From assembly GCA_964187785.1 (NCBI GenBank), contig OZ076409.1:15006001-15070000 (forward strand): a stretch of DNA of 64,000 bases. Reading direction: 5' to 3'. Both the position numbers and the translations under genes were made by a program. The notes beneath the pieces are model-generated. The model was given only the letters and a program-made list of their open reading frames with translations. It did not search any database and was not told where the DNA came from. The DNA comes from Amphiscolops sp. MND2022. Taxonomy: Eukaryota. Positions 1,621 through 61,700 of this stretch are shown piece after piece (within the stretch, counting starts at the first letter, position 1; every line of letters starts with the position of its first letter).

Positions 1621-1816
1621 AACGAAAGTGCGCGCTAAAATCAACAACTAACCACTTCAAAACAAACTCGACTGAAGACTTCAAACAAACACGGGGTGGC
1701 AGTCCCGTGCCTCAACTTACACAAAGGAAACAACAAACTTTGTCATTACAAGACATTCGACTGACAACTACACCTTCCGACCGAAAGAATACAACTGACG
1801 ACCCGAAGTCAACAAT

Positions 1817-4800
1817 ATGGAATTGTTACCTCAGAACAATGACTCGGGTAACGAAACTAACGAAGCTAAACAACCCTCATTCCCAAAACCAAACCCACGG
1901 AAGAAAACCAATTACGAAAACCGCCCGTTGAGTGCTACCCTGCAACTCAACAGCGAAGACAGGATGTTATACGTACCACTCCAATTCCGAGAATACAAAA
2001 ATTTTGGTCTCCTCGACTTTGGTGCATTTCAAAGTGGATTATCAGAAGCAGAACTTCGTCGCATCCTAACAGTTTATCCAGCCGCCCTCCTCCAAGGACT
2101 CCCTGCCCCGGAGTTCAAAGTCCAAATCGCCAACGGCAACATCATGCCAGTGAGAAAACAAGTATTGCTACGTTTCTTCATTGGCGGAATAATCTTCGAA
2201 GAAACATTCATGGTTCTCCCGACAATAGGGAACATACTCATTGGAATGTCGTTCTTCAAGAAATACTCCTTTGCTTTAGACCTGGCCAACAACATCGTCA
2301 AATTCCCGGACACAACCCTTCAGCTACAATCAGTCAACGGGAAATTCAAAAACGAGTTGCTCGAATTGAAAACCACCCAATTGATCCAACCCAACCAATA
2401 GGTGTTCGTCCCAGTGGTGATTGAGCGTGATCTCGGTGACATCACAGGCACTGTCGAAGGATTACGCGCTTTTGAGAGACCATCACATCTGCTGGTATCT
2501 CCTGCTCTCAGCGACACCCGGGAAGATCGGACTCACGTCTAGATCTCAAACCCACTAGACTACCAAATTACCCTGAATGTGGGTACCGCAATAGCATCTC
2601 TCAAAATCAAGACACCGAAACAAACCAGCAAATTACAGCCGATGACCAACCACAAACTTAATTTGATTTCACGATACCCAGAAGATGCCGCAGCAGTCTT
2701 GAATCTAATTTTCTAGGATCTAGTTGCAAAAACGGACAGACCATGGTATCCTACACCTGAGACATGCGGTGATCCGTTGAAACTCAACAAGATCGAAAGA
2801 CGAATTCATCATCAAATCATCAAGTTCAGGGGGAGGAGAAAGTGGAACCGACAACGAGCGAAGAACAACGACAGGAATTTCTAACAAATTTCAAGTACGA
2901 ACAATCAATACTGAACCCTCACGACAAGCAGACAAATGCGGCTTTATTGGTCAAGTACCATGACATCTTAGCTAGACACAGGCTGGACGTAGAGATCAAC
3001 ATCGAGTATAAGATAAAGTTGACTCCCAAGCACGACCAACCATTAATGTTCATCGCTTGCCCACACCGACGAACTTAAAAGATGATTTACTAGTCGAATT
3101 GTCGTTGATCCAGGATTAAGGTATAATCACAACATTACCGTATAACAAATGCTCTTCACCCATCTTCGCTCAACGCAAACCAACTGGGAAGCTTAGAATC
3201 CTTGTCGACCTCGGAAGAAGCAACCATTTACTGAAAAACGATTATAACTAACACAACCACTCCGTGACAACGATGGTTAAGGCAGTACAACACATGGCTG
3301 GGAAACGATAATTTTGCAAATTGGACGGTTCATAAGCGTACCATTGCTTGCAGATGGCAGACGATTAATCAGTCCTATTACTTGCATTCAACTTTGGAAG
3401 TAGGACCTTCGCCTTCCTCAGAATACCCCAAAGCTTGAACCGGTCCCTATCAGCCTTGAACAGTACCGTTCGAGAGTACTTGGACCCCTTGGTCAAGGCG
3501 GACAAATGTGCCCAATGTGTTGATGATATCGGCATTGCTGCCAACAATATTGAGGCAGTCTTCATCAAAATTAGACAAGCCAGACTGAAGCTGTCAATGG
3601 AGAAGTGTGCGTTCAGTCATCCCGACATCGAATTCCTGGGAATAAGCATAACCACCAAAGGCATCGCGCCCATTGAGGAAAAAATTTACAAGTTCCTGAA
3701 CAACATCAAGTTGCCACCGTCTTTGAAGTCACTACAAGGGTATATTGGACTTGTCCAGTTTTACATCCAGTACATTCCGAAGTTAGCTGAGACACTGGTC
3801 CCTCTATACAAGTTGTTATTGAACGATGTCAAATATGACCTCACTCAAGTTCACAAGGACGCGATATTCAACATCAACAAGAACCTCGCAAACGCCGCGA
3901 AGACTTCCTTACGATTACAACTTCCCGACAAACAACTAGTACTAATGTGCGACGCCAGTGAGCATACAGCATACGCTCCAGTAGCTTTCGTAACGCAGAG
4001 ATTTACCGAAAGCGAAATGTCGCTCACGATGTATGCAAAAGAGTTCCTGGCCATGCACTTCGCGTTTGACGAACTCGCGCATTCCTTGTGGGGTGTGAAG
4101 AAGCCAACAATAGTCATGACGGACAACAAAGCCCTCGCAAGGTTCTTCCAATCGAAAAAGATACCACCCAAACTGTGGAACTACAGCAACCTAGCTCTCC
4201 AATTCGACATCGTCCTGGCCCATGAACCCGGAGTCGAAAACTCAGCGGCTGCATCAGTCCTCAGGACACGATCCACCTCAAATTTCACCATGAGATACCT
4301 GTGTTCAAATATTCCGACGAAGACAAGGTGCCTCTTGAATCAACATCACGAATTCTAACTTCACTCCTGGCGATGTTCCCTCACTGGTTGTCTTACGAAG
4401 ACGACGAGCAGTACCGTCGACGCATTGACGACATCAATTCAGAGGTGCAACTGTTTGTGACGCACTCTTACCCAACTCTCTTCTTCCCCCGAACCTACCA
4501 ACGGAACCAGATTCACATGGTAAATCAGGTATGCCCTTCGGGGGTTTCAGAAATTGTTAGAGCTCATAGCTTGAACAGTGAAGTTCAACGTATGATAAGA
4601 ATCGTTACTAAACAGGAAACCCCGCCCAGTCAAGTGAACTTTGCCAGTACGTTCTTTCAAAAACCCTACAAAAACCGCAAAAGACTTGAAGTTGTTAACA
4701 ACGTGTTGTATAGGCAGTTCTTTGACAACGTGGGGCACTTAGTTTACCAACAAATTGTAGTTCCTCCAGAAACTACTGAAGCCATAATCAGGACACTGCA

Positions 4801-6362
4801 CGGCGATCCTATGCAGGGACACCCTGGCGCTTCAAAAATGTTAGGTGAACTTAGAAAAAGCTGCTACTTTCCAAACTAGGCGGAAAAGGTACATGAGTTT
4901 GTGGGCAATTGTCAAGACAGTAAAAAAGTGAGAACTCTGACAACTAGCACCATAACACCAGCATTTGAACGATAATATGACCACTGTACCGGTCCTGATG
5001 ATGTCCTGGAAATTGACTAAGATGGTGATTTATCGCGATCTATTGGGTACTCATACATCCTGACTGCCTGTGACTGTTTCTCACGATATCTGTTTGCTGT
5101 TCCGATCCGGAAACCCGATACCAAATCTGTAGTCGAAGCACTGTTGGACATACTCCCAACACACGCATATGTACGAAAACACATCATTACCGTTAAAAGC
5201 TCTGCCTTTACCTCACAAGTAATTGAAGAACTGATGAGTAAAGATGGGATAAAGTTATCCCATGCGACAGTCAAACACGCTCAGACAATTGGGATGATCG
5301 AGCGTTCGCATCAAAAATTGCAACAAATCCTAAGAATAAATGTTTCTGCAGACCGGCCCAGTGGGACCGATACGTCAACCTCGCCGTTATGGCTCACAAC
5401 ACGACGCACCATCAAACTCTGAAATGTTCCCTGACCGAAGTCTTTCATGGCCGTGTACCATAAATGCACTTGATCTCAAATTTGTCAACCCTCTAAGCTC
5501 GCCGAGAAACGCCAGTGACACACAGTCGCTTGTGGACAATCTGAACGCTAAACTTCAGGAGACTCATAAATACATAATCCGAGCATTCCACAATTATAAA
5601 GCGTAATACGGTCGAAAAGCACAAGCATCGCCACTGCAAGTTAACGACTCTGCATTCTTACTAAACCCTAAAATCAGATCCCAATCAGAAACGTTGCCAT
5701 TCAACTCCTTCAAGTGGGAAGGCCCCCTACAAGGTAGAGAAAAATTTGTCACACTCTGACTACATTGTTCAAACGAAGAAACCTTCACGACTCAGTGTGA
5801 ACATGGAATGCGGCTCCACCCATCTGTACCACACGACCCAATTGGAGACATAACAAACGACACGAATCGTATTTACAGTGACCCTGATGCTTTTGACGAT
5901 TAAACATTCTTTAATGATAACCTACCTGAACTCATACAACCAACACCAGTTGAAACTACAGCTACAGGTGAAATTGAGGTTAATGAAACCGAAACTGTTG
6001 ACACCGGACACGGAATGACCTACTATGAACGTAAACAAGTTCGTGAGGTTTCACCCCTACCGAATTCTCTACCGGAAACTATTCAAACAGACAACACATC
6101 ACACACTGAATGCGACAATCCATCTAATCGAGTGGCAGCACCTCCACCTACTGAGCCCGAACGAAATGTCACGCTGAATGACGATGCGGCATTGACCACA
6201 TCATCAACTGAAACGCCCGCACCAATAACACATAACAATACCACATGCAACAGCCTCAGAGAAGCATCCATCCCCAAAACATATGAAAATTTTCTGGTAC
6301 ATGAACTGCAAGCAAAACCTGCTCTCCTGAAAATCATGCAACGAAAATCTGCTGGTCAATAG
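1817..6362 (+). pseudogene. pol: pol (protease, RT, RNase H, integrase), multiply disrupted
   Basis: LLDFGA (FDTGA in the second copy); QCVDDIGI at the RT YxDD position; LVLMCDASE RNase H; LHGDPMQGHPG integrase Zn finger; HAQTIGMIERSH core; KWEGP motif. Confidence 0.92.
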
Positions 6363-7387: not shown

Positions 7388-10300
7388 CTACTCTGCTTCG
7401 TCGGACGACACTATGGCGTAGAGTGTAGCACGTCGTTTCCTCACCGACACACACTCCTCGTCATCTCCGGCCTCACCAGCGGTGGCTGAAGAAGATAACT
7501 GCAAACTTTTGCTTGCTTTTGGTTTGCCGCCCGTCCGACGCCCTTTTAAACCCGATGTCCCTATCGAGGTGCTAGCAATCAATGTCTTTACTCGCGTTGA
7601 AACCAATGGAGTAGTCTGCCTCGATAAAGAAGTGGATTGAGCTCCCGGATCACAAGTCACATCCGCTAGTCGACGAGGAACTTTTCCAGTCTGCTCTGCA
7701 GTAGACCGACTTCGCACAGGTCTTTTCAACGCGTGACTAGCTCACCTTACAGTACTTAAGGCTTCCACCAGGCCCAATTGAGCCAAAATAATTGGGCGAT
7801 AATCGTTAACAGCAGGTACAGGCGTAGATGTAATTGAACTGTCATACACTGAAAGACAACGCGTAAGAGCATCCCACAGACCAGACTTCAGCCGTTGCTC
7901 CCATGGCATACCACGCTCACTATTATTCAAACGTTACACCTGGATATTCGTTGTTCTGCACAATCGTTTGAGGCCCTGTAAGTTGCATCTCGTCTGACCA
8001 GCAAAAGACATCCGAAGCCAACTCCGCACCAAGTGCAGACTAGACATCAGTGTGTCGCGCGGAACCGCCAATGTAGAATCATCGGCAAAATCCACAACGT
8101 ACTGACCCGTAACTACCAGGCCAAACACAACTTCCACTACATGACGTAACTCTTTGCAACGCGCCCAGAGAGGGTACGCCACCCACATATCCACGACATC
8201 CTCAATGACTGGCATGTTCCCATGAATCGACCACTTCTGTTCAAAATACGAAGCAACTTCACAGTATTGAAGAAGCACTGCATTGCCATCATCACTGTTG
8301 ATCAGGCAGTGAGACGTCAGCATCACACAGGTCTCCACTAAGGCATCCACGCTGCGGTCGTCGGATCCGCAGTGAATCAACACTGGGTCAAATGGTGTTA
8401 GACTAAGATGCTTTACCCCAATTCCACGCCATGCGGCGACAAGCTTGGTACATAGTGCACCGAACATCTTTTGCACAGACCGGTAGAGATAAGAGAGTTG
8501 AGGTCTAACATCGAATCTGAAGTACTGTTCAAACAAAACAATGTACTCGTCCTGGTCAATCACACAGTGATCATGTTCTACATGGGACAGCAAAGCTCCT
8601 ACTTCGATCTCGGCGGGACTCGCAGAAGCCGGGTTCACGTGTTTCATCAAATGGCGTAGATACTGGGACAGTTCACGCTCGACCACCAAGCCAGCGTCTC
8701 TACCGTCAGCGAATAAACGAGAACAGTTGTCAGCCACTGTAACAACAAAACAGGAAGTCACTTAATCAGCAAAACGTAACACTTACGCCAGCACCATCTA
8801 ACGTAGTAAAAATCTACCGTCCCCAGCTAATCAAGTAGGGAAAAAAGAAACCCCTATCTTTTTTGCCCCTAAATAGGAACCCGTACAATGACTACTGCAC
8901 ATACGCCCATTAATACCATACCAAACAAAGACTCAAAATGACACGCAGTGCTGCGAAACGTGGTCTCATCAGTGCATCACGAAAGACCTGCCTTCCATCG
9001 TCGTGATCAGTTTAAGCTCAGATGGTGTGCTAGAACGATGCGTACCAAAAAACACAGTAAGAACACTCCACTGTTCGACAATCTCGGCGCAAAACGCAGC
9101 CAAGGCTGGTACATCGATCCCGCCAGTGCGCACGTACTGGAACACAAAAGACACGAATCGAATAACGCAACGCCTCCCAGAGGAAACAAAAAAAATCACT
9201 TACCACCTACTATCACCTCGAGATTCACAGTGTACACAGGCACCAACGTAGATATAAACACGCCTATTGTCCACATATCTGAAATAACTTACACGATGAA
9301 GTAGCGACATGCGATCCAGTGAAGAATCGTCCACGACAGACAGCAAACGAAATTGGAAGTACTCAAGCACGCCAAACGGTTCCAGACCTCCGAACTCCGC
9401 TAGTAGCAAGTCTTTCACAAGCTGCAGCATGAACCGCTGAGTAAAGGCTCCAGAAATCAACGGTTTCGCTGGCGACAAGCCTGCCGCCAAAGCAGGACCC
9501 AACTGTATTATCCCTTCAATGACATACGTTGTCACAGCCGCAGCATGTTCCAGACCCAGCAACAATGGCACAACCACTTCGACGACCTTCCTCTCTCATC
9601 CGGACTCACTAGTGACGACAGCTAACACGATGGACTTTATCGAATGTTCATCGATCAGGTGGCACTCGCACATCCAGTACCGTTCTCGTCTGCGCACACT
9701 GATACTAACAATCGCACTCGCACCCATTCCTTTGTCGAGTTCCAAGAGAGGCCGCACAAAACCAAGCTCTGCAAAACACATACAAATCCCTTAGAATCTA
9801 ATCCAAACACGACACACACTTGCAATCAGAACCTCGGAACCAGTCTCTAAACGAAAAATAATGAGCACGAGAAGCTTAAAGTAACAGAATAAACTGCATT
9901 TTACGCAAAGCAACACCGCACATGAAATACAACAAGCAAACGGAAAAAAAGAGAGAAGGAGTTACCTGACAACGAGCGTAGTTGAGGTCGCGGCGTTCTA
10001 CCTTCAGTTCGGAAGCCATGTTAGCCCTCCACGTGTCCACTCCTCTCATCACATTGCCGAACGAACTCAAACTCACAAAATTGGACACAATTCTGCAAAT
10101 CTGCCAAACCACAAGCATTCCACGGTCTCCGCTTCCAAAATCGGGCGCTTCTCAGCTGCTGCTTCTACCTCCTCTACAGCAATCAGTTCCTCAATAGACA
10201 GGTTTAATGACGATTCCAGAAACACAGGAGGTTCGGACATCCTTGCTAGACAAATACGTCTATATTCCTCAGCGGAAACTGGACGACACGATCGTCCAGC

Positions 10301-11505
10301 AAAAGCTTCTGCACAATAATCCGAAACTTTTGCTCCAGGCGAGTATGTTCTACGCCCTTCCAGTGGACCCATAACGACAATAGCCTCCGCCCACCAATGC
10401 TAAGGTCCACAAGACACAATAGAAAGCGTGCACACCCGTCGATTACGCGTTTGTGCTGAGGGAATCCAATGAAGGTTCCAACCACCCCGGACACAAAGTA
10501 CGACGGCTTTAGCGTCTTTAATTTACGGCGACAACCTGAAACACACTACATGCATAAGCACAAACATCAAAACAAGCACTCATGAGTTCACCCACTAAAC
10601 TCCAAAATAAATCTTTAGGACCTATACAGTAGTAATTCTTTCTTAAAACCCCTCCCATGATCTCATGATTTTCTTACTAGGTTTTGCAGTTTTGTGCTCT
10701 CAAGTGCCACTGACGTCGAAGACTCCAGCTGACCGAACGCAGAAGGGACTGAGGCACAGCCTCCTTCTGATCCTTCTGCAGGCTGCGAGGATGTAGTCAT
10801 CATCGTTAATTGTACGACAGACGATAATGGTAACCTTCCTTCTTGACTCATACAACCAGATCCAGCCTCAGATACAGACGACGCCTGTGTCGTCACAACT
10901 TCCCCCATGGCAACTTTTATTTTGTCGATGAATTCTTCAACAAGCATGGCTCCGACGGTGCCCACGTGACCAAAACGAGTTTCAATTGTCGCCTTCACCA
11001 GATTCGACATTTGCTTGATGAGTTCATTGACAACCACATCAAGGTCAGACACGGTCACGAGCCGCGCACCCGATATAACTGTGAAATACGTGATAGTTTG
11101 ATTACCATACCCCCCACCCACATGCTACTACAACCTTGACTCCTGAATACCAACAGCGGCCACAACTGGTATTGTCAACTACACGATAAATAACGAAGAA
11201 GATAACAGGCAAAGAAGTCTGGAATCATCATTGACCTGAATGTTTTGAAGGAAAACTGACAATCGACTCCTCATTTCTTCAGTACTCAGCGACGAGGACT
11301 TGGGGAAATCACCAGTTTGACTTAGCAACCCTCGCAGTAATGATACGATCACTTCACACGCAGGCTCTCTGTGAACGCCAAATAACCTGCGATACCCATT
11401 AGCAGAACTACAGATACTTTGAGCAAATGTTTTTTCCCGGGATGTAAAAGCTACATATGGGATTGATAGGAATGTGACCGACCGCAACCAATGTGAAACG
11501 CTCAA
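7388..11505 (-). pseudogene. Antisense multi-exon accessory gene of element A: Zn-finger plus hAT-transposase-like protein (decayed)
   Basis: Minus-strand ORF chain from 11179-11505 down to 7388-7729; acceptors at 10536, 9769, 9137, 8737 and donors at 10677, 9965, 9292; colinear similarity to the 55649-58523 product. Confidence 0.75.
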
Positions 11506-11571
11506 TGACTAACGCAAAAAAGGAGAGACGACGTCTCCCCAAAAATATACAAAAAAAATTAAAAAAAAACG

Positions 11572-12090
11572 ATGCAATGTTTAAACCAACCTGTGTATGC
11601 AGTTCAAAGAAGTATCCAAGTAAAGTACTCACGGAATTCTTCTGTTGAAACAATCTACGCCAAAGAGTTCAACGCGTCAGAACTGGCTGCTGAGAAACGT
11701 GATGCCAAACGGCAGCAAATGGAGCCCACTCCTCCTGCTAACAACTCTTCTTCACCCTCCTGAGACATATCAATGTCGTCATGAGACAACCTACACTGAC
11801 CCTCTTCCACTGGAAAACCTACTACGGACAACACAGTGGTGACGAAGTCATCGTCAGAATGATTCACGCCAGACATAATCGATCACGATAATCTGAAAAC
11901 AACGGACAATAACAGGATTGCAAAATGATACAGTTGCGATTTACCGAGCATCAATGCTTCTTTTGTTGATCATCTGGACTGATCATCCTCATTGTCTACG
12001 ACACAGAAGCCCCCTCGCCCCTATCATAGAAAAACTCTTTACTGTTGAACGCCAATTCTTTAAATTACCTTTGCCTAAAATCTCCTAGAT
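11572..12090 (+). pseudogene. Possible decayed Ser/acidic sense-strand ORF upstream of the PPT
   Basis: ORF 11572-11763 continues through several stops; same relative position as ORF 53349-54104 of element F; no convincing sequence similarity. Confidence 0.3.
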
Positions 12091-12576: not shown

Positions 12577-12587
12577 AAGAGGGGGAG
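12577..12587 (+). other. Polypurine tract of element A
   Basis: AAGAGGGGGAG directly before TG of the 3' LTR. Confidence 0.85.
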
Positions 12588-13810
12588 TGTTATGCAATAC
12601 GCATGATTGCTATCAATCTAAACTGTTACCCACACAGCGCTACCAGGCAGAAAGTATGATTGAAAACAACGGAACAAACGAAATTCACAGTCACAATATC
12701 ACAAGGCCAAAACGGAAAAACGAAGGAAACCGGATCATAAAATAATGCAATTGATTACACAGCATTGAGAAATAAACTCAAACATTCTAAATGAATAAGT
12801 TATGACGTGACTGTAATACATGCATCCTTTAAACATTCACACAAAATATTCCTTTTCCATCAAATCCATTTCCGTTGAATGATGTAGTTTTGTCGAATAT
12901 TTACCTTTAAACATTTTCGCAGAATAATCATCTCTTTTTTCCATCAAGTACATTCGCGGCGTTTGATGTAGTTGTGTTGAATACGTCAAACTAAGTGCCA
13001 AAAGTGTTTGTAATACTATAGTACGCAAAATTGCTTAGTCCATAATTTGTCATTTACCCAATGTTAGTGACGCATCATCATCATCTAGTCATATGTATAA
13101 GCCTCAACGTTTGAGATGTAACATCATCATACTCTAGTACAAGTGCAATTATTTCACATACGGTTTTCATACGTTTTATTCAATGATTCATGTAACCATA
13201 GTAACGTTCCATCACTGAACTCATACCAAAAGACGCATTTGCGCTGCCAAACACAAGGTGCTAATTAACACCAAGAAAATAACGCAACGGGATTGGCTAA
13301 TGAGGTCACGTGGCCAACATCACCAAACTCAACAGCAGGTGCCACCGCGCAGCCATTAACTTTTGCTTTACTCTAACGTGCAGTTACCAACTACATTGTT
13401 TTTTTAAACCAACCTTCATTTCAATATCAATCTAAAAACCATCCTCCAACAACTCAATTAAACTTTCAAAAACTCCAATTTTTCCTTTGTGTTTAACACG
13501 AGATCTCAATTAGCGAGAAATATTTCAGTAGATATGAGCGGAATGGATAGACATAGTGACACTGAGAGTGAAAGCATTTTGCCCGAGATCCTTGCGAGAG
13601 ATCAAACAAATGAGTTCGACAATGGCGACTTGTTAAATTACCAGAACGACACTGAACGACACATACTAAACCTTCGTTTCTCTGGAATGAACAAGCAGAT
13701 CAACCAACTAACAAACCTAGTATCGGCCTTAACAGAGAAGATATTCTCTAGCAATAGAGAAAGGAACGATTTAAACAGTGTCTCATATGGACACGAGACA
13801 CGTTCCGACG
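12588..13810 (+). repeat. Complete ~1.22-kb LTR, shared with the downstream tandem unit
   Basis: Begins TGTTATGC after the PPT; 3' part matches 1-570; followed by a second PBS. Confidence 0.9.
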
Positions 13811-15460
13811 TGGTGACAGGAGCTTCAACAAGCAATGCCCAGACGAAACCACTGCGTCCATCAACATCACACTACACTCAGCCGCCCGCACACCAAATTG
13901 ACGACATAGTAACCAAATCCATCACCTGAGAGATACCGTGACGGATTCCGTACATCATCCGAGAATTCTCCATACCTCCATAGACTTCGAGAAGAAAAGC
14001 TAAACATCTTTGAACCCAAACTCGCAAACCGCAGCCCAGTCCAACCTAACAAACGAACCAAAACCCAAAAACAACTCCAAATTGGTATGCCAAATTTGTC
14101 GAAAGGTGGGACATTCAGCCCGAGATTGTTACTACTGGAATACGGGTACGTCAGCACACCGAAGCATCCTGTACCCTAAACAGTCAACGAAGGAAAATAA
14201 ACAGATTCGAAGGGATTTCATACACACCAACAATAGTGTCTACAATACAAACCAAACGAACTGTCCCACGCAGCACATGACGAAGCTGACAGTAATGAAA
14301 AAACCGAAAAACACGATGACGTAGAAGATCCAAAAAATTTTTGCTTAAACCACGTCATCCTCCTCAATTAAACGAAAGTGCGCGCTAAAATCAACAACTA
14401 ACCACTTCAAAACAAACTCGACTGAAGTCTTCAAACCACACGGGGTGGCAGTCCGTCCCGTGCCTCAACTTACACAAAGGAAACAACAAACTTTGTCATT
14501 ACAAGACATTCGACTGACAACTACACCTTCCGACCGAAAGAATACAACTGACGACCCGAAGTCAACAATTTGGACTTGTTACCTCAGAACAATGACTCGG
14601 GTAACGAAACTAACGAAGCTAAACAACCCTCATTCCAAAAACCAAACCCACAAGACAGGATGTTATACGTACCACTCCATTTCCGAGAATACGAAAATTT
14701 TGGTCTTCGACACTGGTGCAATTCAAAGTGCATTATCAGAAGCAGAACTTCGTCGCATCTTAACAGCTTATCCAGCCGTCTCCTCCAAGGACTCCCTGCC
14801 CCGGAGTTCAAAGTCCAAATCGCCAACGGCAACATCATGCCAGTGAGAAAACAAGTGTTGCTACGTTTCTTCCTTGGCGGAAAAATCTTCGAGGAAACAT
14901 TCATGGTTCTCCCGACAATGGGGAACATACTCATTGGAATGGATTGGCTGATGAGGTCAGGTGACAAACACCACCAAACTCAACAGCAGGTGCCTCTGCG
15001 CAGCCAATAAGTTTTGCTTTACTATAACGTGTAGTTACCAATTAGATCATTTTTCTATATCAACCTTCATTTCAATACCAATCTAAAAACTATCCTTCAA
15101 CAACTCAATTAAACTTGAACAAACTCCAATTTTTCATTATGATTAACACGAAATCTCAATTAGCGAGAAATAATTCAGTAGATATGTGCGGAATGGAGAG
15201 ACATAGTGACGCTGAGAGTGAAAGCAGTTTGCCCGAGATCCTTGCGAGGAATCAAATAAATCTGTTCAATAATGGCGACTTGTTAAATTACTGGAACGAC
15301 ACTGAACGACATATAGTAAACCAGCGTTTCTCTGAAAGGAACAAGCAGATCAACGAACTGACAAACCTAGTATTGGCCTCAACAGAGAAGATATCCTCTA
15401 GCGTTAGAGAAGGAAACGATTTAAAAACTGTCTTTTATAGACACGAGACACGTTCCGACA
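13811..15460 (+). mobile_element. Second, heavily deleted tandem unit of element A (PBS, gag/protease remnants, 5'-truncated LTR 14941-15460)
   Basis: Matches 571-~730 and ~1229-2247 with deletions, then jumps into LTR sequence ending CCGACA. Confidence 0.88.
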
Positions 15461-39661: not shown

Positions 39662-40320
39662 TGAAGAAGTTCTCCATTAACGAGAGTCTGAAACGATGCA
39701 TATAAACTTTCAAAAATTTAAAAACTTGACCGACTTACTAACTTGAACATCAATGTCTTATTAATTTGGTAGTAACCAGGTGACCATAACCCTTTATCTG
39801 TCCTTAAATAGAAATAATGAGTTGCCATTTTCTGATTGGATGCATGGAGCATGCACATTTCAAAAAAATCTTAAACGAAATTTTGAATACAGAAGAAAAC
39901 TACTCGACAAAGGAGTGGGAATAACGCCCAAATGCAAAACGGGAATAACGGCTGAATTCAAGTCAGGCTCATTCGACATATTGAAACATTGAATTTAGGA
40001 CGCAGTTGCAAATTGCAGCGATGGAACTGATGACATTGCTGATGATGATGCGATATGCAAGATCAACAAGAAAAAAACAGAAGTCCGCCTCGGAACGTAA
40101 AAAAAGTCCGTTCAAATTGAAACATGTTTTTTTCATCAAAGGGCCCCAGCATTTTGTGGAGGGAACGGACTGAGTTTCACCGGGCTGGGGTGTGAGCTCG
40201 AGCCCTAAGAGAACAGAGGAACAGAACGAAACTCGGGGTTCAAAAAAACTTACAACCACTACTTTTTAAGCGCTGAATAAATCAATCTTTATTTATAAAT
40301 CATGGCCAGCAAATAGTGGC

Positions 40321-40520
40321 NNNNNNNNNNNNNNNNNNNNNNNNNNNNNNNNNNNNNNNNNNNNNNNNNNNNNNNNNNNNNNNNNNNNNNNNNNNNNNNN
40401 NNNNNNNNNNNNNNNNNNNNNNNNNNNNNNNNNNNNNNNNNNNNNNNNNNNNNNNNNNNNNNNNNNNNNNNNNNNNNNNNNNNNNNNNNNNNNNNNNNNN
40501 NNNNNNNNNNNNNNNNNNNN
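40321..40520. other. Assembly gap
   Basis: 200 N. Confidence 1.
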
Positions 40521-43500: not shown

Positions 43501-44175
43501 ATCTCTCCGACAACTTCGGATTTCAGGCCAAGAGAGAAGGGATTCTGCCAAAACATTTGACCAAGGCACACACAGAAAGGATGGTACAACTCCTAACCCA
43601 ACACAGTGTTCTCTGCAACTTCCAGTTCCATATTGGACGATGTTTCACTCCGGTCTGCACATGCATGTTAGAAGAAGAATCTACAGAGCACTTTTTATAA
43701 AGATACCCCTTTTACTCAAATTTGCGTAGCTCAGAACCACCCAAGCCTCTGGTTGATCTGCTGGATAACTGTAGTTGGGAGAATTGGAAAACAACCCTGA
43801 ATTTTGCTGAATTCTCGCGGAGACTTCAGACGTCTCACGGGGAGTTCCGTAATTGTTGCAAACGTTTCTGATGCAAAAGAAATATAACGTCACAATGAAA
43901 CGACATTACTAGAATCACAGAGGGAGGAACAACTGTAACCAAAAGTCCGCTCAAAATTAATTTTCCATTTCTTCAACCGAGGGCCCCAGCAATATTCGTG
44001 GAGGGAGCGGACTGAGCATTACCGGGCTGGGGTGTGTGCTCGAGGACTGAAGGAAATTGGTCTCCAATCGAAAGAAACTCTAGTGTCTCAGCTTGACATA
44101 TGTTTACACATTGTAATCCTAACAATTTTATATTTTTATAATCAATTTGTAAATCATGGTCAGCAAGTAGTGGCG
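40521..44175 (+). mobile_element. Non-LTR retrotransposon (APE-RT-Cys/His C-terminus) with internal RT deletion and 3' tandem duplication
   Basis: IIMGDFNARH and SAID (APE); KAFDSVW, GLPQGPVLSPILFN, KYADD (RT); CTC..EE..EHFL; N-terminal RT blocks missing near 41485. Confidence 0.92.
41941..43958 (+). repeat. 1008-bp tandem duplication of the LINE 3' region
   Basis: 41941-42948 repeats from 42949; no difference seen by eye. Confidence 0.95.
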
Positions 44176-51262: not shown

Positions 51263-52470
51263 TGTTACGACTTATGTTCGGGTCGCTTGGTGTTGAATTT
51301 ATTCTAACCAACTTGGTTGGGGTGTAGAAACTCCTAGTTTCATTTTCTATTTCCTCTCCAACTTTCTCTCTAACGTTCTCTCTTGTATTAGGCTTTAAGA
51401 GTTTCAACATTTCTTTCTGGGATTCGATCAGGAGGTTCTTAATTTCAGAGGTTATTTCCTCCTTCAAAGAGACTCTTAAACTTTCTAGGAAACTATTCTC
51501 AACTCTAGGAGATTTCGGGTTTGAGGGACCAGCAACGCCAACGTCTTGTTCCGAAGAACAGGAATTTCCTATTATCACTGGTGAAACAAAACCTTCACTA
51601 ACGTTTTCATTGTTCTCTTGCTGAATATTCTTTCTCTTCTGGCTTCGAGTTGTACACATTTTGATGGAGAAAAAATTTTTCCGAAGAATTGAATTTCTTT
51701 CCAAAGATTTTCAACAAAGTTGAATTGAACGAAGTTGAGACGAACAAGTTAAGGCAACTGTTTATCACAAAAGGCAAAAGACTGAGTCCCTCAGCCAACT
51801 AAAATTACCGTATATATACCCTCCTAGCATAATTTGATCACAACCAAAACCCCTAATTTTCCTTGAACAATGAGTCATTTCCTGTTTTATCGGTGAAAAA
51901 ATTATCATTGCCTCAAATTTGCGTCAATATTTCGTCAACTTTTAAGACACGATGATCTCATTATCATTTTAGTCATCAATCATGACCACATCATTTCATT
52001 CCGGTGTCCCTTTATTTCCTCCCAAGCAGGAAGTAGATTTTACTTCAGTCCAGCAAACCGGAAGTTATTCCCTGTTTTACTGCTCTGGTTCGCGGGAAAA
52101 CTGACGCTGAGATGACGCTGACGTGAACAACTAATCCTCAGATTTCAATTTTTCCTAAAAGGGCATGACTAATTCACGATGGTCTTTCTAATCGATGCTA
52201 ACAGAGGATAAATCACCGGCAAGATGTGATGTTTCTAGATTAAATCAAATTACCACTAAACATTGGATTATAGTACATATTCGTCAACACAACGTAACAT
52301 TTTGCAACATAAGTATTGGTGTATGAAATTGTAGCAACTTTTAATGAGAAACAACAGTAATATACGATACATCTTGGTAACAAACAGGGATGATGAGGTT
52401 TAGAAGATTACTCATTCATTTAGTGATTGTTATGTAAGGATACTGCAACATTTTCCAAATTGACACGACA
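51263..52470 (-). mobile_element. LTR related to family C with ORF MCTTRSQKRK...; solo LTR or 3' LTR of element F; right boundary uncertain
   Basis: TGTTACGAC end; similar to 44386-45290 up to ~52175; candidate TSD CAATG at 51258-51262 and 52471-52475; no clear PPT. Confidence 0.7.
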
Positions 52471-53348
52471 CAATGACGTCAATCCATTCATACAACATCT
52501 TCGAAAGAATATAAATGCAAACATACGAAAATATACTTATAGTACGAAAAATACGGTAGCTCCGTTTCATTTTGATTGTGATCATAAACTGTGACTTTAA
52601 TAGTTTTCATAATACTTCCAGTATTAGAACATTCTAATTTCCCTAAATCCATTGAATATAAAAATGTTTCACTACTTACTAAAGCCTGACGCAAATACGA
52701 CGTGAAGAATTTCATGTTTTCCCTTGTTTAATCACCGTTGCGTTTATTCAAATTGCCTTATTTTTCTAGCATCTCCTATTGGGATTTACAATTCTTATAG
52801 AATCTTGAACTTCCCGATTCCCTCCTAATGAATTCATGACATTAGAACAACTGCGATTATTTAGTCAACGTGGTCGCGACGTAGCGTTGACCAGAAATTT
52901 GGAAAGAATCTTAGCTAGCTAACGTAGCTGTGACGTAGTATTGACCAAGAATTTGGAATGAACTCTAGCTAGCTAACGTAGTTTTGACGTCACGGTTATT
53001 TGCATACATTGGTTACTACAGTCATATTTGTTTGTTTAACGACGCAAAGACGTCTCATTTGGCGGCCCAAGAAGCTATCGCTTTGTGTGCCATCTCAATG
53101 CATTTTATTTTAGATTTCGATTGAGGTTTTGCTTTGATTGGAGTTCGTCCCCATTTCGGAGTATGCTTTAGTTTCAAATTTCAGGTGGTGAATGTTTCAG
53201 AATTATGACAAGACTTAAACGTCTTGATAGAAATACGTGAAAACATTTTAGCTTAATTCATTTTCCGGATTTCACTTCTGTTTCAAGGCAATTTAGATTG
53301 GAAGATATTTTAGTTTTAGTCACAGTCTATGCTTTAATATTGTAAGTT

Positions 53349-54104
53349 TTAAAGTCCAAAAGACCTTTTCGTTAGCTTCGCAGTGCATCCGTGACCTCTG
53401 CCGTAGCCAATCCGTCTACATCCGCATTCCAGTCCGGGAGCGGACTGTGACAGGGCCACTGTCATGGGTCGAGCAGCATACCCAGGTTGACGAACTTGGA
53501 ACGAATTGCGTAGGAGATGGCTGCAGCTGCTCTTTATTGGAGAGATGTTCACTGTTCTCTTTGCTTCTAGATCATTTAGCGGGCTCACCGACTTCGGGAC
53601 TATTTTCTTTAGCGGGCCCGGAGGAAAGACGAAATAAGAGATTGAGTCTTCTCGTGCTATTTGTTCTAAGTATTCTGTTACGGTCTCGCTAGTTACTGAG
53701 CGTGGGTTGGGTCGTTTATGATTTTCAACTATGAAGATTTCCGAATTAGTTAAGACATCCGTTCTGGCTTCTTCGATTTCTTCATCCGGGCTTTCCGGGC
53801 TCTCAACTATTTCGCCGTCTTCGCAACTTTCGGTAGACGAAGGGTATTCGCCAGATTCTACTGATACGAAACTATTACTTAATCTGAATCGTTTACAATT
53901 CGTTTCAAGGGAATCAATAGACGAGTTGATGTCTTCCTCATAGTCAGCGTTGGCCTCGACGGAAGAATGGGATATTTCCAAAGTTACCCTGAGATTTGGA
54001 AACAAATCCTTGGGGAGTGGCGTTGAAGCTCTTTCCGATTCTTCTTCGTTTCCACTCTCTGATGAAATGTCGATCAGTTCGTAAATGTCCTTGAGGCTAG
54101 TCAT
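53349..54104 (-). CDS. Intact 251-aa acidic Ser/Glu-rich accessory ORF of element F (sense to pol)
   Basis: Uninterrupted ATG-to-stop ORF; LIDISSESGNEEE; C-terminal CGC...HGC; no TM or signal peptide. Confidence 0.65.
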   Translation of the reverse strand: MTSLKDIYELIDISSESGNEEESERASTPLPKDLFPNLRVTLEISHSSVEANADYEEDINSSIDSLETNCKRFRLSNSFVSVESGEYPSSTESCEDGEIVESPESPDEEIEEARTDVLTNSEIFIVENHKRPNPRSVTSETVTEYLEQIAREDSISYFVFPPGPLKKIVPKSVSPLNDLEAKRTVNISPIKSSCSHLLRNSFQVRQPGYAARPMTVALSQSAPGLECGCRRIGYGRGHGCTAKLTKRSFGL

Positions 54105-54619
54105 CTTGTATCAGAGTTCGTTGTTTGTAGTTGGCGATTTCTTTTGCTGCTATTCTTTCAGTGTTGTTGTTTTTACAATGAATTTTAGGTTTGTTTGAAT
54201 TGACAGATTCATCAGGAAATAATTCTTCATTTTAATTGGTTAGCACCTTTCGATTTATTTTTTAATCCTGGTTGTTGTCGTAATGACAACGACGTGATTT
54301 TATTGGACTTGAATTAGATGATTTTGTTCAGCTGAACTTTGTCAACGTTTTGTTGACGTCAGTTTCGTTAGCGAATAGCTAACTTTCATTTAACTGTCAT
54401 CGTTTTGATGACGTCAATTTTGATAGCGTTTTGCTATATTCGTTCTCGTCAGTTTATGTCTGACTTGGACCATCTATCATCGTTTTGATGACTTCAATTT
54501 CTGATAAAGTTTTGTTAACGTTCTCCTCGCTGTCTTCATATGAACGTTTGATGGTCACTGGGTTGTTTTATTTCTCTTTTCCATTATTTTTCTTCTTTTC
54601 AGGTTTCTTGTTTCCCGGG

Positions 54620-57600
54620 ATGAGTCACAAGGCAGCTCCTTCGCGAGTTGAGACTGGAGCTCAGAGTGGTAACGAGACCCAATATGTCTTTTGTGAGGGG
54701 GACGTTCGTGACAGTGACGCAGATCCGCAGCCTGGCCGACATCTTTTGGGTTTGTTTGAGTTTTTATTCCCTCCATCCATTAAGCTTTGTAGATACTATT
54801 ATTCGCAGCGGAATACTTTTGTTTCTACAGCTTAGATTTTCTGACGCGTCGATAATGGGAAGTGTTTTCCAGGTGCGGTCCCTGCTGTTGTCACTGCTGT
54901 TCCTTCTCGTGTTTCTGGGTCTTGTCCAAAGTTTGATCCTCCATACGTGCCTCTTGCTGTGTCAGTGCCTGCAACTGTTGACGATGTTCCTGAGGCAGAG
55001 CTTCCTGTCGCTGCTACGTCGCGGGTGTCTTTAGATGGTGACCTTGATCTTTCTCTTGCCCAGTTTCTCAGTGGCCCTAGTGGGTCTAGTTCTGTACCCG
55101 TTGCTCAGACTACCGAGGTCGGTATTTCGGCTCAAAAGGCGAATGTGACTTTCCATGAGGCTCCTTGTGATGTTCCTGCCCCATCTCGTGTAGGCGAGAG
55201 TGATGCCCCCTACTGGAGCAAGTAGCGGAGTGGTTGGAAAGTTAGAAGAGCAGCCAGCATTGGAATCTGTGCCCAGTAAAACTGCTCGGAAACGCGAGTC
55301 AGTCCTTCTGGAGTCTGTTGGGTCAAAACGACGATTGCGGACAACGTCGTCGTCCCGTCGTCAACAGTTCCAATTTGACAGTAATGTTCTGTCTAGTTGT
55401 CTAGTTTGATGTAGTTTTTAGGTGTCATTACCAGTAATCATTATGAATTTAGGTAGCGACGATCAGTCTGATGAAGAGTCAGGTATGGTGTTCAATCCAC
55501 GTCAGACTGCTTTGCTGGAAGGGATACTTGGAGTTGAGCTTGGCAGTGAAACTATGCAGCCTTTATTTTCGAGTTAGTAATCCTTGGTATGTGTTCTAGG
55601 CTTTTGCTACAGAAAATGGCGATTCTGTATTTGTTGTTTGTGTTGTAGGATTGCAGGAAGTTCTGTCACGAATGGAGTCAAGTATTGAGGGCTTGTCCGC
55701 TATGCAACCCAAAGTTTGTCCAAACAATCCCCGGAATCGTCTTCGCCGGGATATGGTCAAGGATGATCCTGTGTATAGTCTCTTTGTCAGTGGGTCAAGT
55801 ACTGGATGCCCTTGGAGTTTTTACTGCATGATATGTCACAGGAACGTGTCGATGAAGACTCGTGGAGCCGGAGAGTTAGATCGGCATTTCGGAACTAAGC
55901 ACCGGAACGCTGACGTGACGTGCAGAGTTCACAATGGTCTGCCTGTATACAATCGTCTGCGTGACCCTATGGTTCTATCAGCTGAGGAGGAGGCTGATTT
56001 CTTGTCGCGAGTCTGTCGTGGTCGAGCTGAAGGCTTTAGTTTCCCCGAGGATTTGCTACCATCATGTACCCGGGAGGGTTCCAGTGTGCCCCTTCTGACA
56101 ATGGTCACCTCTTTGATGGAGCTGTTGCGTTGTGGCGGAAGCTATCTACTGCTTCGTAAGCTCTGGGGCTGTTTCCGGGCTACGTTAGGTCGAGAGAATC
56201 CTTTGTATTCGCTGGCATGGAGCCGTTGCGACTCACTCGTTAGTCGTTTTGTTTGTTGAATGATATGTATACTGTTTCATCTTTGCGTGTATTGTCATAT
56301 AGTTGTTATTTAGATTGGTCTTAGGGTAGTGTTTGTTGTAGGCTCTCATCTGCCGTGCCCTATTCCCTCGGGTGTTACGTGCCCTGCATTCACGAATTAT
56401 CACTTTCGGTGTCTACAGTGTGTCTTTTAACGAAGTAGACGGGAACCAGTACTGCGTTGTTCGAACGTGGGAGGATGACTCTCTGCTGGAAGTGTGCGTT
56501 CATGTTGAGCCGTCTGGACGTCGACTGCCTGAAAAAAAACTTGCTGGGTTGTCTCGAGTGGTTAGTTCCCTGCCAACATCACAGTTGCCTATATTGATTC
56601 GGGGTGGTAGTCCCACTCTTCTGCGGGTCATCAATGAGAATGGTGGTGATGGGCATCACTTTGAGTATATTCGGGAGTTTACACCCAAAGTTTTCTTGCG
56701 TTGTTATCGGCAAGCCCACCAAGACATCTTTGGAATGTTGGAGACAACTGCAATGGTGGATTTCTTGTTGTTACGGCTGAGAGGAGCTCTGCATGAGGTG
56801 TGGCTAGAGGACGTCCCAGAGCTCCGACGTGCAATCATCGCTGGTTCTGTGGAGTTTTCTGGAATGCGTTCTGTAGTGACTGAACTGATTTCTGTGTGGA
56901 AATTTGTTCGCGAGTACGTCCGACACTCTGGTCCTCGACACGTCAAGAGTGCGTCCGATAGGGTATGTATTGTTTCTGTCGCTTTTGGGTTGTACCTTGT
57001 TTTTATATTGCTTATGGGTCGGGGTTTAGTCGTCTGTTTGGGATTTGTGGTTTTTCTGTAGTGATTACGGTGGAGCTGTTGTTATAGATGCGGGGCACTG
57101 ATTGGCATGTATTCTCGGACAACTTGAATGACTTGCGTCTAGGCTTACTTCTTCATGTTTTGGAGATCTGTGAGTATGATTCGTGATTGTGTCATCTGTG
57201 AGTGCCTGTTCGAGTTATTTTATGTGCGTATAATTAGATCATTGTACCTTCAAGAAGCAGCTGGTGAATCGATCTGATTATGGTTTCTATAGTTACAGTG
57301 AACTTTGCCAGTTTGTTTATTGTCTGCTGTCTCGAACTCGACGTCTGTCGGATATGCCTGAGTTAAACGACTGGGATGCGTATTTGGATAGCCCGAAGAT
57401 AGCTGCTTTCGGCAAAGCGGATTCTGCTGACTTCTTGGTTAATCATTCCTTTGGTGAGGAGCTGAGAAGGTCTAGTACGCAAGAGCTGTGTGAATTCCGT
57501 CGTCGCTGTCAGGAGTTTATGGATCGTCTTGTGGAAGTGATTTTGTCCCTTCATTTGGTGTCTGCAGAGTTTTATCAGGGCATCTATTGCTTTTGTCCCG

Positions 57601-58523
57601 AGTTGTTGTTGGAGGGGGACGACCGTTACATTTTGGGTCTTTATGCGAAGCTGTTGCGAGTGCTGGAGAAAAGTGGATGGTTGACCACAGATGTTGCCAA
57701 AGCTAGCTTGGAGGAGTTTACTTCGTATGTTGTGGAAGTACGTGTTCGGCATCGAGATTCTGACCGGAGCGCGGCAGAGATTGTTGACATTGTTCCCTAT
57801 ATTTTGGCAGATTACAGCTTCTGTTGTCGTCATAACCTCGTTCGGGTGTTGGAACTCTGCAGTCTTGTGGCTATGCGTTTGCCTTTGAAGCTGCCTGTTG
57901 TGGATATCGACACTTCGGATTGTAGCGTTCCTGATTTGGCAGTAACTGCTGCTTTGAAATGTATCCAGAGTTACGTTCTGTCGCCTGCCTATAAGCAAAT
58001 CGCCTTTTTCACTACAGCCACTATGGAAGCAGTGCGGGATTCTGTCGCACATTCGCGAGTTTTTATGACTTCTGTTGGACTCGATCCTTGGAACGAGTTG
58101 GCGTGTTCTGATCGCGAAGAAGTCATTTTGAACTACAGTGGTTTGTTTGCTGGGCAATTGTGTCGTAAGTAGAAACTTGCTGTGGATCAAGCCGGTGATA
58201 AAGACAAGCGACGACAGAGTGGTAGTGATGTTGCGTCTGCTCCTAGTTCAGTCAGGGCATCTCCTGTTGGCAATGCGGCTGTTTCAGGCGACGAGAGTAC
58301 GTCAAGTTCGGTCAAAGCTGGCAGGCAGAAGTTACGCGTTAGTATCGCCGCTGCAGTTGCGAAAGGAAAAAAGGCTGTTACTCGAGTGGGTACTGCTGCT
58401 GATGATGAAGGAATGGTTGGTAGTAGTGATACGAAGAGGGGTGCGTCACATAGTACCCGGACGAATGATGAGGAGAAATCGAAAACAACTAGCTCTAAGT
58501 CAGGAAAGGGCTCCAAGCACTAA
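54620..58523 (+). pseudogene. Antisense multi-exon accessory gene of element F: Zn-finger plus hAT-transposase-like protein (few lesions)
   Basis: Exons ~54620-54749, 54831-55380, 55453-55572, 55649-56238, 56342-56962, 57062-57169, 57238-58523 with GT-AG introns; frame preserved across introns at 55381, 55573, 56239, 57170; FYCMIC...RHFGTKH. Confidence 0.82.
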
Positions 58524-58729: not shown

Positions 58730-61700
58730 TCATAGCGTCGAGTCTTCTGAAATCAGGATCTGCATTTGGTTTAGGTTTAGGTCGTAGATAATAGTTTGCT
58801 GTTTTTCGTGGGTTATATCCGACGTTCGTAGGCGGTGGTCTTGGGGAATAGGTGGACTTTCAATGGGTGAGGGGCGTCGTATGTATGGGTTATCTCCCAC
58901 GCTTGTAGTAAGATTTGAAAAGTCCGGTGACGGCGGCGCCACGTCATCTGTGTCTTCAGTTTGATTTCTTGGCGTTTCAGGCGTCGTCGTTTTGTCGTTC
59001 ATGTTTGTCTCTTCCTGTATTATTACTTGTTGCTTAGTTTCCGTATCTTTTGATGTCTCGTTTTCGTCGATGTGCTTTCCAAAATCCATTTCCCATGATA
59101 CTGCATACCATTCATTGTGGGATACCTCAACGTCTGGGTCTGGCAGATAGTCATTTGATCGTACTGTGACATCAGGCAAGCGTTGGTCTGGTACGTAGGG
59201 GCGTATTCGGATTCTACGTAGCGTCTGTGTGTATCTCGTGCCGAGTTTTCGTATTGTGTAGTTGTTATTTGATAGTACTTTTATCACGATATACGGTCCT
59301 GTCCAGATGCAATCTTGGAATGCGAATTTCGTAGATTGATTGTCGGCTTTCGGATTAAGGATGTAGCAGTAATCATTTATTTTGAGCGGAGCTGCCGACG
59401 CTTTGCGGTCGTAAAAATTTTTGTATTTGAGATAAGACAGAATGATGTTGTCTTTTGCTGTCGCTCGCACTTTGTCGATTTGCTTTTGGAGCTGTTCTGC
59501 TAAATCCGAGTTAGGCGTGGTTTTCCACTTTGGCTTGATGCCCAGTTTTAAATCGAGAACATTGTAGGGTATACGTCCATGGAATACTGTAGATGGTTCA
59601 CAGCCCAAAGTGTCATGATATGTTGTATTATAGTTCATTACTGCAATTTGGACATATTTGTGCCACACTGAGCGTCTTTCTCCCGTTGAGATTTTTAGGG
59701 CAGTTTTAATCGAAGCGTGAGTTCTTTCTAAGATTCCGATCGTTTGTGCATGCTTCGTAGAAGCGTGGCTGATTTGGATTTCGAGTATTTGTGTTATTTC
59801 CGCGACAACTTCCGATCTGAACTGTGAGCCTTTATCTGATAAAATTAAGGTTGGTAGGTATGCATGTCTTGTCATGACGTCGACAATGCAACGTCCGATT
59901 GTCTCTGCTGTGACATTCTGTGTTGGGTATGCAAATAGGTATCGTGACAAGACGTCAATCATTGTGACAATGTTCTGATATCCTGCAGAATTTGGTAGGT
60001 TTGGCAGTATGTCGATTTCGAGTATGTCTTCCGGTCCTAATACATGTTCTGTATTGTTAATCATTTTCGGCCGGATTTGGCTATTGTGGATTCTTTTGTA
60101 CTTGATGCAGTCTTCGCATTGCATTACCCATTGTTTGATTCTTCTCGCTAATCCGGGGTAGTAGTATTTTGATCTGCATTCTTGGATCATCTTTGTGATT
60201 CCAGGGCGTTTTCCCATTTGTCCATGAATTGCTGTCAGTAGTTGGGTGATTAGGTGTTCGGGTATGAGTATCTGGTGGTGTGTGATCTGTCCACATTCCC
60301 CGTAGTATTTGCGCATTAGAATCCCGTCCTTGACAACTATTCTGTTTTCATGGACCAAGAGACGTTTTGCTTTCGGGTCTGTTTGTAAGAGGTGTTTGTC
60401 ATATTCTTCGAATATTAACTTTCGTTTGATTGCTTGAAATACGGGGTGTGAGTCTTGTTCAACTCTAATTCGTGCGTTTTCCTTGATTGCTCCGAAGGTG
60501 TATGACGCTTTGTTGATTGATATCGGTGCCGTTTCTGTTAAGATGAGTTTGATTTTCCTTGTTTCTGCTTCAGATGCGTTTTGTCTTGCTTGTTCCTTTT
60601 GTAATAGAATCTCCTCTTCAGTCTGGAGTGTTTCGTCGGGAAGGAAAAAGAGTTGTTCTTCATCTGCGACGTCTGTCGATTGTAAGTTGATTTGTATTGG
60701 TCTGATTGTTATGTCATCTCGTAGTTCCAACTAAATTCGCTCCTTAAAGTTTAGGTCGATCCTTGATAGAAAGTCGGCCGCAGTTTTTGTGTCCCTGCTA
60801 CGTGCATTATGTGGAAATTAAATTGTAGGACGTAGTCAGAGGCATTCCATAGTGTGGGAGGGATAGCCTTTGTTTAGAAGAATCGTGTTACTGATCTGTT
60901 GTCAGTCATTACAAGTGTTTGCAAGGTTGCTTCCCATAGTACATGGCTGTATTCGTGTATTCGAGGAAGGCATGGAAGATTGCTAGGAATTCTTTAATTG
61001 TGCTGGTGAGAATACTTTCGATCCGAAGGCGACGGGCGCGAAGGTCTTTTTTTTTGAATTAAGTTTCTTCTCGTTATCTTCTTCCATCATGAGAGCGTAT
61101 CCTGAGGCGCGGAAGCTGGCATCCGTGGTTAGGACGTATTGGCGACCTGTGATCGGTTGTTTAAGGGCTAATCCGCATGCTTCCGCTAACGCTGCGTTAA
61201 TCGCTTTGTAGTTATCTAGCAGGTCTTCCTGTATTATTACTTGTTGGTTAGTTTCCGTATCTCTTGATGTCTCGTTTTCGTCGATCTGCGTTCCAAAATC
61301 CATTTCCCATGATACTGCATACCATTCATTGTGGGATACGTTAACGTCTTGGTCTGGCAGATAGTCATTTCATCGTACTGTGACGTCAGGCAAGCGTTCG
61401 TCAGGTACGTAGGGGCGTATTCGGGTTCTATTTATTGTCTGTGTGTATCTCGTGCCGAGTTTTCGTATTGTGTAGTTGTTATTTGATAGTACTTTTATCA
61501 CGATATACGGTCCTGTCCAGATGCAATCTTGGAATGCGAATTTCGTCGATTGATTGTCGGCTTTCGGACTAAGGATGTAGCAGTAATCATTTATTTTGAG
61601 CGGAGCTGCCGACGCTTTGCGGTCGTTGTACTTTTTGTAATTGAGGTAAGACAGCATGATGTTGTCCTTTGCTGTCGCTCGCACTTCGTCGAATTGCTTT

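Follow-up and report, generated by a model that had tools for sequence, protein, structure and literature searches.

How two strongly diverged genes, each lying within an LTR retroelement, come to have introns at what appear to be the same codons, and what becomes of introns in an element of this kind, was examined in a 64,000-nt stretch of DNA (the window) from a 1.07-Gb eukaryotic assembly. The explanation that we consider probable is that the two genes, A and F, represent separate lineages of a single conserved accessory gene that has introns and lies antisense to pol in Ty3/gypsy elements, that its product has a predicted hAT fold and is likely catalytically dead, and that stepwise intron loss, starting at the 3′ end, likely took place via reverse-transcribed spliced mRNA.

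Element organization and position of the accessory gene

The window held two degenerate LTR retroelements, A and F, in mutually opposite orientation. In element A a degenerate pol lay on the forward strand (1799..6362; RT/RNase H at 3369-4358, integrase from ∼4226), gene A ran on the reverse strand from ∼11.9 kb down to 7.4 kb, and the matched part of the 3′ LTR (12587..13237, forward strand) was 84.9% identical to the 5′ LTR immediately upstream of the window. In element F pol lay on the reverse strand, with its integrase part at 58730..60730 (Pfam rve E 2e-10, Integrase_H2C2 E 2e-11) on the strand opposite gene F (forward strand, 54620-58523), and the matched part of the 3′ LTR (51263..52803, reverse strand) shared 94.5% identity with the 5′ LTR, which lies downstream of the window. 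The pol domains identified by Pfam were RVT_1 (weak, E 0.0014), RT_RNaseH, rve and Integrase_H2C2, and RT-RNase H was followed by integrase, which is the Ty3/gypsy order. A-type integrases and the F integrase were ∼34-49% identical over aligned parts.

Taken by itself, the window pair gave weak evidence of homology between the genes. The best tblastn match between the window copies had an E-value of only 0.12, and the gapless 30-residue score after the last acceptor (10) was equalled by 22 of 6930 random offsets. Relatives were therefore collected, mainly with last-exon queries and so through the gene itself, and these family data settle homology. Searches with the last exon of F gave at least 128 scored matches (7098 candidates) and those with the last exon of A at least 144 (801 candidates), most of them stop-free. 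Four lineages are distinguished, A, F, G and C.

At A, F, G and C loci an integrase was found downstream of the accessory gene on the opposite strand, and the gene occupied the interval separating pol from the 3′ LTR, antisense to the former. LTR pairs were 97-100% identical in 20/20 extended copies. TG..CA LTR ends, 5-bp target duplications and a single PBS type (TGGTGACAGGAG) were resolved in a subset of copies that included members of all four lineages. These copies are recent insertions with the accessory gene inside them. An LTR length of 1.9-2.5 kb was common to F, G and C. An acidic pol-sense ORF adjoining the 3′ LTR (53349..54110, reverse strand, ∼250 aa in element F) was conserved at F, G and C loci, where it was 220-320 aa long and reached or entered the LTR; none was seen in lineage A. 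The start of the F-type 3′ LTR (e.g., in copy L069 near 1555) lacked a clear polypurine tract and was preceded by ..TGACAGTGGCCC, in part an inverted repeat of the LTR start, and short purine runs preceded the 3′ LTR in C and G.

Plant and fungal gypsy elements are already known to have antisense ORFs in the interval from pol to the 3′ LTR, and the accessible text of the sources gives their origin as unknown (PMC7264820; PMC11963269, PMC5408684, PMC6431247). Examples are maize Grande gene23, with a promoter of its own and a product located in the nucleus, rice RIRE2, Silene Retand/TRP28, PvRetro13 and fungal Boty (PMC7264820). The Retand antisense ORFs contain a domain that goes by the name transposase 28 and has no known role, and the word 'intron' is absent from the Retand paper. 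According to a review, the lack of similarity of antisense ORFs to other TEs lends no support to a nested-TE origin (PMC7264820). Like these ORFs, the gene of A and F is conserved, belongs to a gypsy element and is antisense to gag-pol in the same place, and in copies found through the gene itself it has the aORF-3R placement (between pol and the 3′ LTR, opposite strand, conserved). It is set apart from the plant and fungal ORFs by its introns, about six in number, and by the hAT fold predicted for its product. A search of the accessible literature found neither a multi-intron or hAT-derived antisense ORF nor a case of introns being lost inside an LTR element.

Gene structure, shared intron positions and selection

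We infer splice junctions, and splicing of the gene, from comparison of copies. A spliced aligner was written for the analysis and used to model 122 copies; its profiles and splice weights were trained on A and F copies, and intron positions were not imposed. The survey covered relatives closer than the divergent A-like proteins P0115, P0121, P0137 and P0155.

The core exon of gene A (9966..10535, reverse strand, as are all features of this gene) encodes a CxxC..H..H finger and is broken in the window copy by a frameshift and a stop. It is followed by a phase-0 intron at shared position 1 (9769..9965; GT-AG at the exact codon and phase in 36/40 A copies), an exon at 9293..9768 (usually 489 nt in relatives; the window copy has 476 nt and is out of frame), a private phase-0 intron (9137..9292; present in 40/40 A copies, absent from F, G and C), the penultimate exon (8927..9136; 211 nt in relatives, ending in VLDL), the last intron, in phase 1 at shared position 2 (8737..8926; 39/40 A copies, disrupted in the other), and the last exon (7388..8736). 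Intact relatives have 444-455 codons in this last exon, and the window copy has a premature stop at 7934-7936. In all, 2 stops and 4 frameshifts were found in the modelled core of the window copy. The 5′ region (10536..11632) has about three more predicted introns (donors 11632, 11235 and 10677; acceptors 11369, 11079 and 10536) and could not be aligned to F.

Gene F, on the forward strand, begins with low-complexity predicted 5′ exons (54620-54749, 54873-55380 and 55453-55572, together spanning 54620..55572), the first two introns being placed by analogy with relatives. A phase-1 intron (55573..55648), retained in equivalent form in G and in lineage C (which has no core introns), precedes the core exon with its CxxC..H..H finger (55649..56238). 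Then follow the phase-0 intron at shared position 1 (56239..56341; 57/58 F and 10/10 G copies), an exon of 621 nt with predicted RNase H-like strands (56342..56962; 163 + 44 codons against the 163 of A), a phase-0 intron private to F and G (56963..57087; 60/60 F and 9/10 G copies), a penultimate exon of 82 nt (57088..57169), the last intron, in phase 1 at shared position 2 (57170..57237; present in 49/61 F copies, absent from 9 and shifted in 3; present in 8/10 G copies and absent from 2), and the last exon (57238..58523). The core of the window copy is open as far as a premature stop at 58170-58172, ahead of a basic low-complexity tail.

The earlier note had placed phase-0 donors at 9965 (A) and 56239 (F), both 21 codons past a W or F residue, and phase-1 last-exon acceptors at 8737 (A) and 57237 (F). 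The GT and AG dinucleotides, phases and codon distances were found as it had given them, the partner splice sites being 9769 and 8926 in A and 56341 and 57170 in F. Its private intron of A (9292-9137) also stood, as did the privacy of the F intron relative to A; its acceptor for the latter, 57061, was rejected, the AG being absent from the three closest relatives and the site giving a stop. Acceptor 57087 keeps the 82-nt exon in frame.

DNA alignments of 20 F-type and 21 A-type copies showed conserved blocks bounded by fixed GT and AG columns, the intervening sequence aligning poorly. Exon lengths were near-constant (563/489/211 nt in A, 593/621/82 nt in F), intron lengths varied (45-1374 nt), and splice sites were kept at saturated dS. 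Intron retention would disrupt the frame in most copies (e.g., 56/57, 46/49 and 26/36). One A-type subfamily (L142, L143, L144 and L146-L149) has a first core intron of 90-96 nt, in frame and stop-free, so that retention there would leave the protein unbroken. Intron loss was considered for A-type copies with open frames of 350-400 aa and rejected, in-frame introns of 90-117 nt being present.

About three or four further introns per lineage were predicted in the 5′ low-complexity region, surveyed in only 9-12 copies per set, and the gene has about six introns in total. This region is unalignable between A and F. That the phase-1 introns preceding the core in A and in F are homologous was rejected as unshown, their distance to the FVSG motif being 12 versus 44 codons. 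Within the predicted first intron of F-type genes a motif, CCATTAAGCTTT..CACAG..GACGCGTC, is conserved (54765-54850 in the window). The pol-sense strand of this segment gave a weak hairpin fold (z -2.2; 4/200 shuffles as good), and an Rfam search of the window, the motif included, gave no match. Palindromes of the form TGACGTCA were located in the window at 54354, 54409, 52474, 52985 and 12372; in the 500 nt upstream of the predicted start of the accessory gene their mean count was 2.3 in F copies and 1.0 in G copies.

Comparison of the A and F profiles with hhalign gave a probability of 99% (E 5e-17, 22% identity, 665 columns), and the genes are, at the level of these profiles, homologous. 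Protein alignments blind to introns placed the shared introns in a single column in 23/23 copies. In the alignment of 58 intact copies from four lineages the phase-0 intron fell at column 243 and the phase-1 intron at column 494, without gaps on either side, and the first and last core introns share a column in A, F and G. The sharing of both positions, proposed from the window pair, was thus reproduced by formal alignment with relatives; hhalign offset junction 1 by two codons, so that the match there is good to ±2 codons, and the last junction followed the same VLDL codon under both methods. The private introns of A and F lie 44 codons apart. Simulated by chance, 2 of 3 positions were shared exactly in 1/400000 cases and within 2 codons in 42/400000 (about 1e-4 or less).

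Selection was estimated from the 58 intact copies among the 122 modelled, representing all four lineages. dN/dS was 0.15-0.22 where the two copies of a pair differed by a dS below 0.1, and 0.05-0.16 where they were further apart. This comparison of coding sequences showed purifying selection on the accessory gene, with fixed splice sites, in keeping with the selection suggested from the window alone, and we infer that the gene is expressed.

Intron loss and lineage history

Nine of nine F-type copies (L105-L111, L119 and L120) read straight across the last junction at the predicted codon, as did two G-type copies (L234 and L235) that were sampled from a large set of almost identical matches. 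Removal of the last intron was exact in 11/11 copies from these two subfamilies, and the naturally joined intronless copies confirm the predicted last junction independently of RNA. An IQ-TREE tree of 33 copies picked from 97 nested both groups among intron-bearing relatives, with three changes of the trait, and a single clade of the two groups was rejected (AU p 0.001). The genomic copies show loss of an intron within a retroelement, where the earlier note had proposed gain or loss. Copy L145 was rejected as a clean loss of the last intron, its intron being disrupted.

Lineage C, reached via the relative P0165, comprised 51 matches, each with one uninterrupted open frame (862-918 aa). In 10/10 fetched copies, picked from stop-free matches, the gene was again antisense to pol and had no core intron, and donors and acceptors were conserved for four 5′ introns, including the one immediately before the core. 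A gap of 6-7 residues lies next to the F-private position, so that the absence of the F-private intron from C is not demonstrably exact. Lineage C would have lost all three 3′ introns.

The reverse transcriptase model of intron loss predicts exact, adjacent and 3′-biased loss and is termed controversial in the accessible text of its source (PMC3652778). This pattern fitted 3/3 events in a small, last-exon-biased and unrooted sample. The nesting of intron absences from the 3′ end is consistent with loss via reverse-transcribed spliced mRNA. The position of the root decides the polarity for lineage C and whether the private introns represent gains or losses. With midpoint rooting, both the accessory tree and the integrase tree placed A first, and the order is taken from these two midpoint-rooted trees together with the traits common to F, G and C (long LTRs, pol-sense ORF). 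Rooting with one outgroup, a degenerate unrelated gypsy fragment, gave an AU p of 0.5, under which lineage C could be ancestrally intron-poor; a search of viral and metagenome contigs found no outgroup RT relatives.

If the ancestor was intron-poor like C, the core introns would have been gained inside the retroelement, two in the ancestor of A, F and G, one more in A and one in F and G. The outgroup tree allows a root near C, and the private introns require either two gains or two losses. We nevertheless regard this history as unlikely, since the midpoint roots of both trees place A first, the profile similarity score between F and C (708) is far above those between A and C (119) and A and F (92), and both events that could be polarised are losses. 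Somewhat less probable again is a history in which the introns are ancestral and their exact losses arose by genomic deletion, end-joining repair or a jump of RT on genomic RNA, no spliced mRNA serving as template. NHEJ is proposed as an alternative route to exact loss in the part of the literature that was accessible (PMC3652778), and the polarised events are only two, of a single intron each; however, both struck the same, last intron, and lineage C is without three adjacent 3′ introns yet retains 5′ ones.

The preferred explanation, loss through a spliced mRNA, would begin with the entry of an intron-bearing hAT-type gene into an ancestral element as DNA and in reverse orientation. Introns that are antisense on the genomic RNA are not read by the spliceosome and so are copied through every retrotransposition cycle. 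Since then the gene has been kept under purifying selection with its splice sites fixed, two subfamilies have come to lack the last intron exactly, and lineage C would have lost all three 3′ introns. The losses would likely have proceeded through cDNA copied from the spliced antisense mRNA, in the simplest case by the RT of the element itself, which then took part in recombination or template switching. Exact, adjacent and 3′-biased loss is likewise described for RT-mediated intron loss in host genes in the accessible part of the source (PMC3652778); unlike there, the gene, the RT and the lineage history belong here to one replicating element. The exact loss of the same intron in independent lineages, together with a lineage C that is without three adjacent 3′ introns, makes it possible to test the debated RT model within a single genome that offers thousands of candidate copies. 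The accessory gene shows that multiple introns can be maintained in a gene carried by a retroelement, and annotation tools based on open frames would miss it.

Predicted fold and function of the protein

A structure was predicted with AF2 for P0165, a full-length lineage-C-type relative of 890 aa (pLDDT 79, 46-row alignment). The top ten Foldseek matches of the model were all Hermes (E 2e-5 to 4e-4), and comparison with VIA gave a Z-score of 12.2 to Hermes (rmsd 5.7, 415 aligned) and 6.6 to the next chain. The predicted model has the Hermes fold, an RNase H-like core with a large helical insertion, and the fold is predicted for A and F through profile homology to the P0165 type. The finger residues C108, C111, H128 and H134 (CxxC-H-H) were invariant across the four lineages, and Pfam zf-BED matched 1/18 sequences (E 0.079). 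Atlas leads to hAT families were all under 0.9, with ZBED, FAM200 and DAYSLEEPER at 0.79-0.82. Pfam searches with single exons and with relatives gave nothing significant, the last exon folded alone gave no clear match (best Z 4.8), a sequence profile search of the PDB gave one match (E 3.7), and a word search for longer homologues of the last exon gave none. Searches other than by profile found no free-standing hAT donor gene. P0082, P0165 and P0198 were 36-53% identical to their best genome match, and this low identity indicates that the gene family, to which P0060 also belongs, is probably also present in at least one other genome. P0060, P0251 and P0252 likewise had no high-identity counterpart in this genome or went unlocated there.

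The hAT catalytic triad lies at the ends of strands 1 and 4 and after the helical insertion. No acidic column was conserved across lineages at the predicted end of strand 1, the predicted end of strand 4 or the helix after the insertion, these positions being read from predicted secondary structure and Hermes motifs rather than from residue-level superposition. The accessory protein is likely a catalytically dead hAT derivative. Its full-length Hermes-like predicted fold and strong constraint would also suit a transposase that is still active, with the element a hybrid of class I and class II; given the lack of a cross-lineage acid at the predicted catalytic positions, and insertions that have LTR ends, 5-bp duplications and an integrase ORF of their own, we consider this highly improbable. 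Weakest is the suggestion that splice-like sites coincide by chance in unrelated or unspliced sequence, to which the lack of significant similarity within the window pair lends some colour and which is refuted by the profile match (E 5e-17), by sites fixed over ∼110 copies and by natural intronless copies that join exons at the predicted codon.

The protein of the preferred explanation, a transposase derivative without catalytic activity, may with about even chances be a DNA-binding nuclear regulator or helper of the element, serving it through zinc finger and basic tail, rather than a DNA-cutting enzyme. A DNA-binding regulatory role is suggested by the finger, the basic tail and the cluster of TGACGTCA that precedes the gene in F and G, and also by Grande gene23, the product of which is nuclear (PMC7264820). 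The protein resembles Hermes and other hAT transposases (PDB 8EDG, 4D1Q and 2BW3) in predicted fold over ∼415 residues and in its N-terminal CxxC..H..H finger, and differs from them in its 10-13% identity, in catalytic acids that are apparently not conserved and in its location inside an LTR element. ZBED, FAM200 and DAYSLEEPER have DNA-binding roles. Like these host-domesticated proteins it appears transposase-derived and constrained, whereas its carrier is another multicopy transposon and not a host locus. HBZ of HTLV-1 is spliced and is a bZIP protein of a retrovirus, unrelated to the protein of A and F; HBZ is not known to show comparable intron turnover. HBZ and the gene of A and F are both antisense accessory genes, and the product of HBZ is described as nuclear in the accessible text of the source (PMC11963269).

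New here are the predicted hAT fold, the exact absence of the last intron from two subfamilies and a third lineage without 3′ introns; antisense accessory ORFs were already known. The predicted fold would give such an ORF a traceable source, a hAT transposase, where origin and role were stated to be unknown (PMC7264820). A fuller proposal is offered tentatively, at slightly under even confidence: a DNA transposase would have been domesticated within a lineage of LTR retrotransposons to serve as a regulatory gene with six introns, and the RT of the elements, acting on spliced antisense mRNA, would have removed introns from it repeatedly. If true, this would represent domestication of a transposon inside a transposon, and nature would have tested RT-mediated intron loss more than once.

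Further repeats were observed in and around the elements. Stretch L237, in which the accessory gene had no match, contained a degenerate gypsy element belonging to another lineage (YLDD motif), which interrupts a nested A-related pol fragment. A non-LTR-like element with endonuclease-like and RT-like frames (40277-43963) contained a 1-kb tandem duplication and adjoined an assembly gap. Two more truncated copies of the leader and gag region of element A followed its 3′ LTR (13240-15459), and a 2.2-kb tandem triplication, 94-96% identical, lay within pol of element F (59010-64000).
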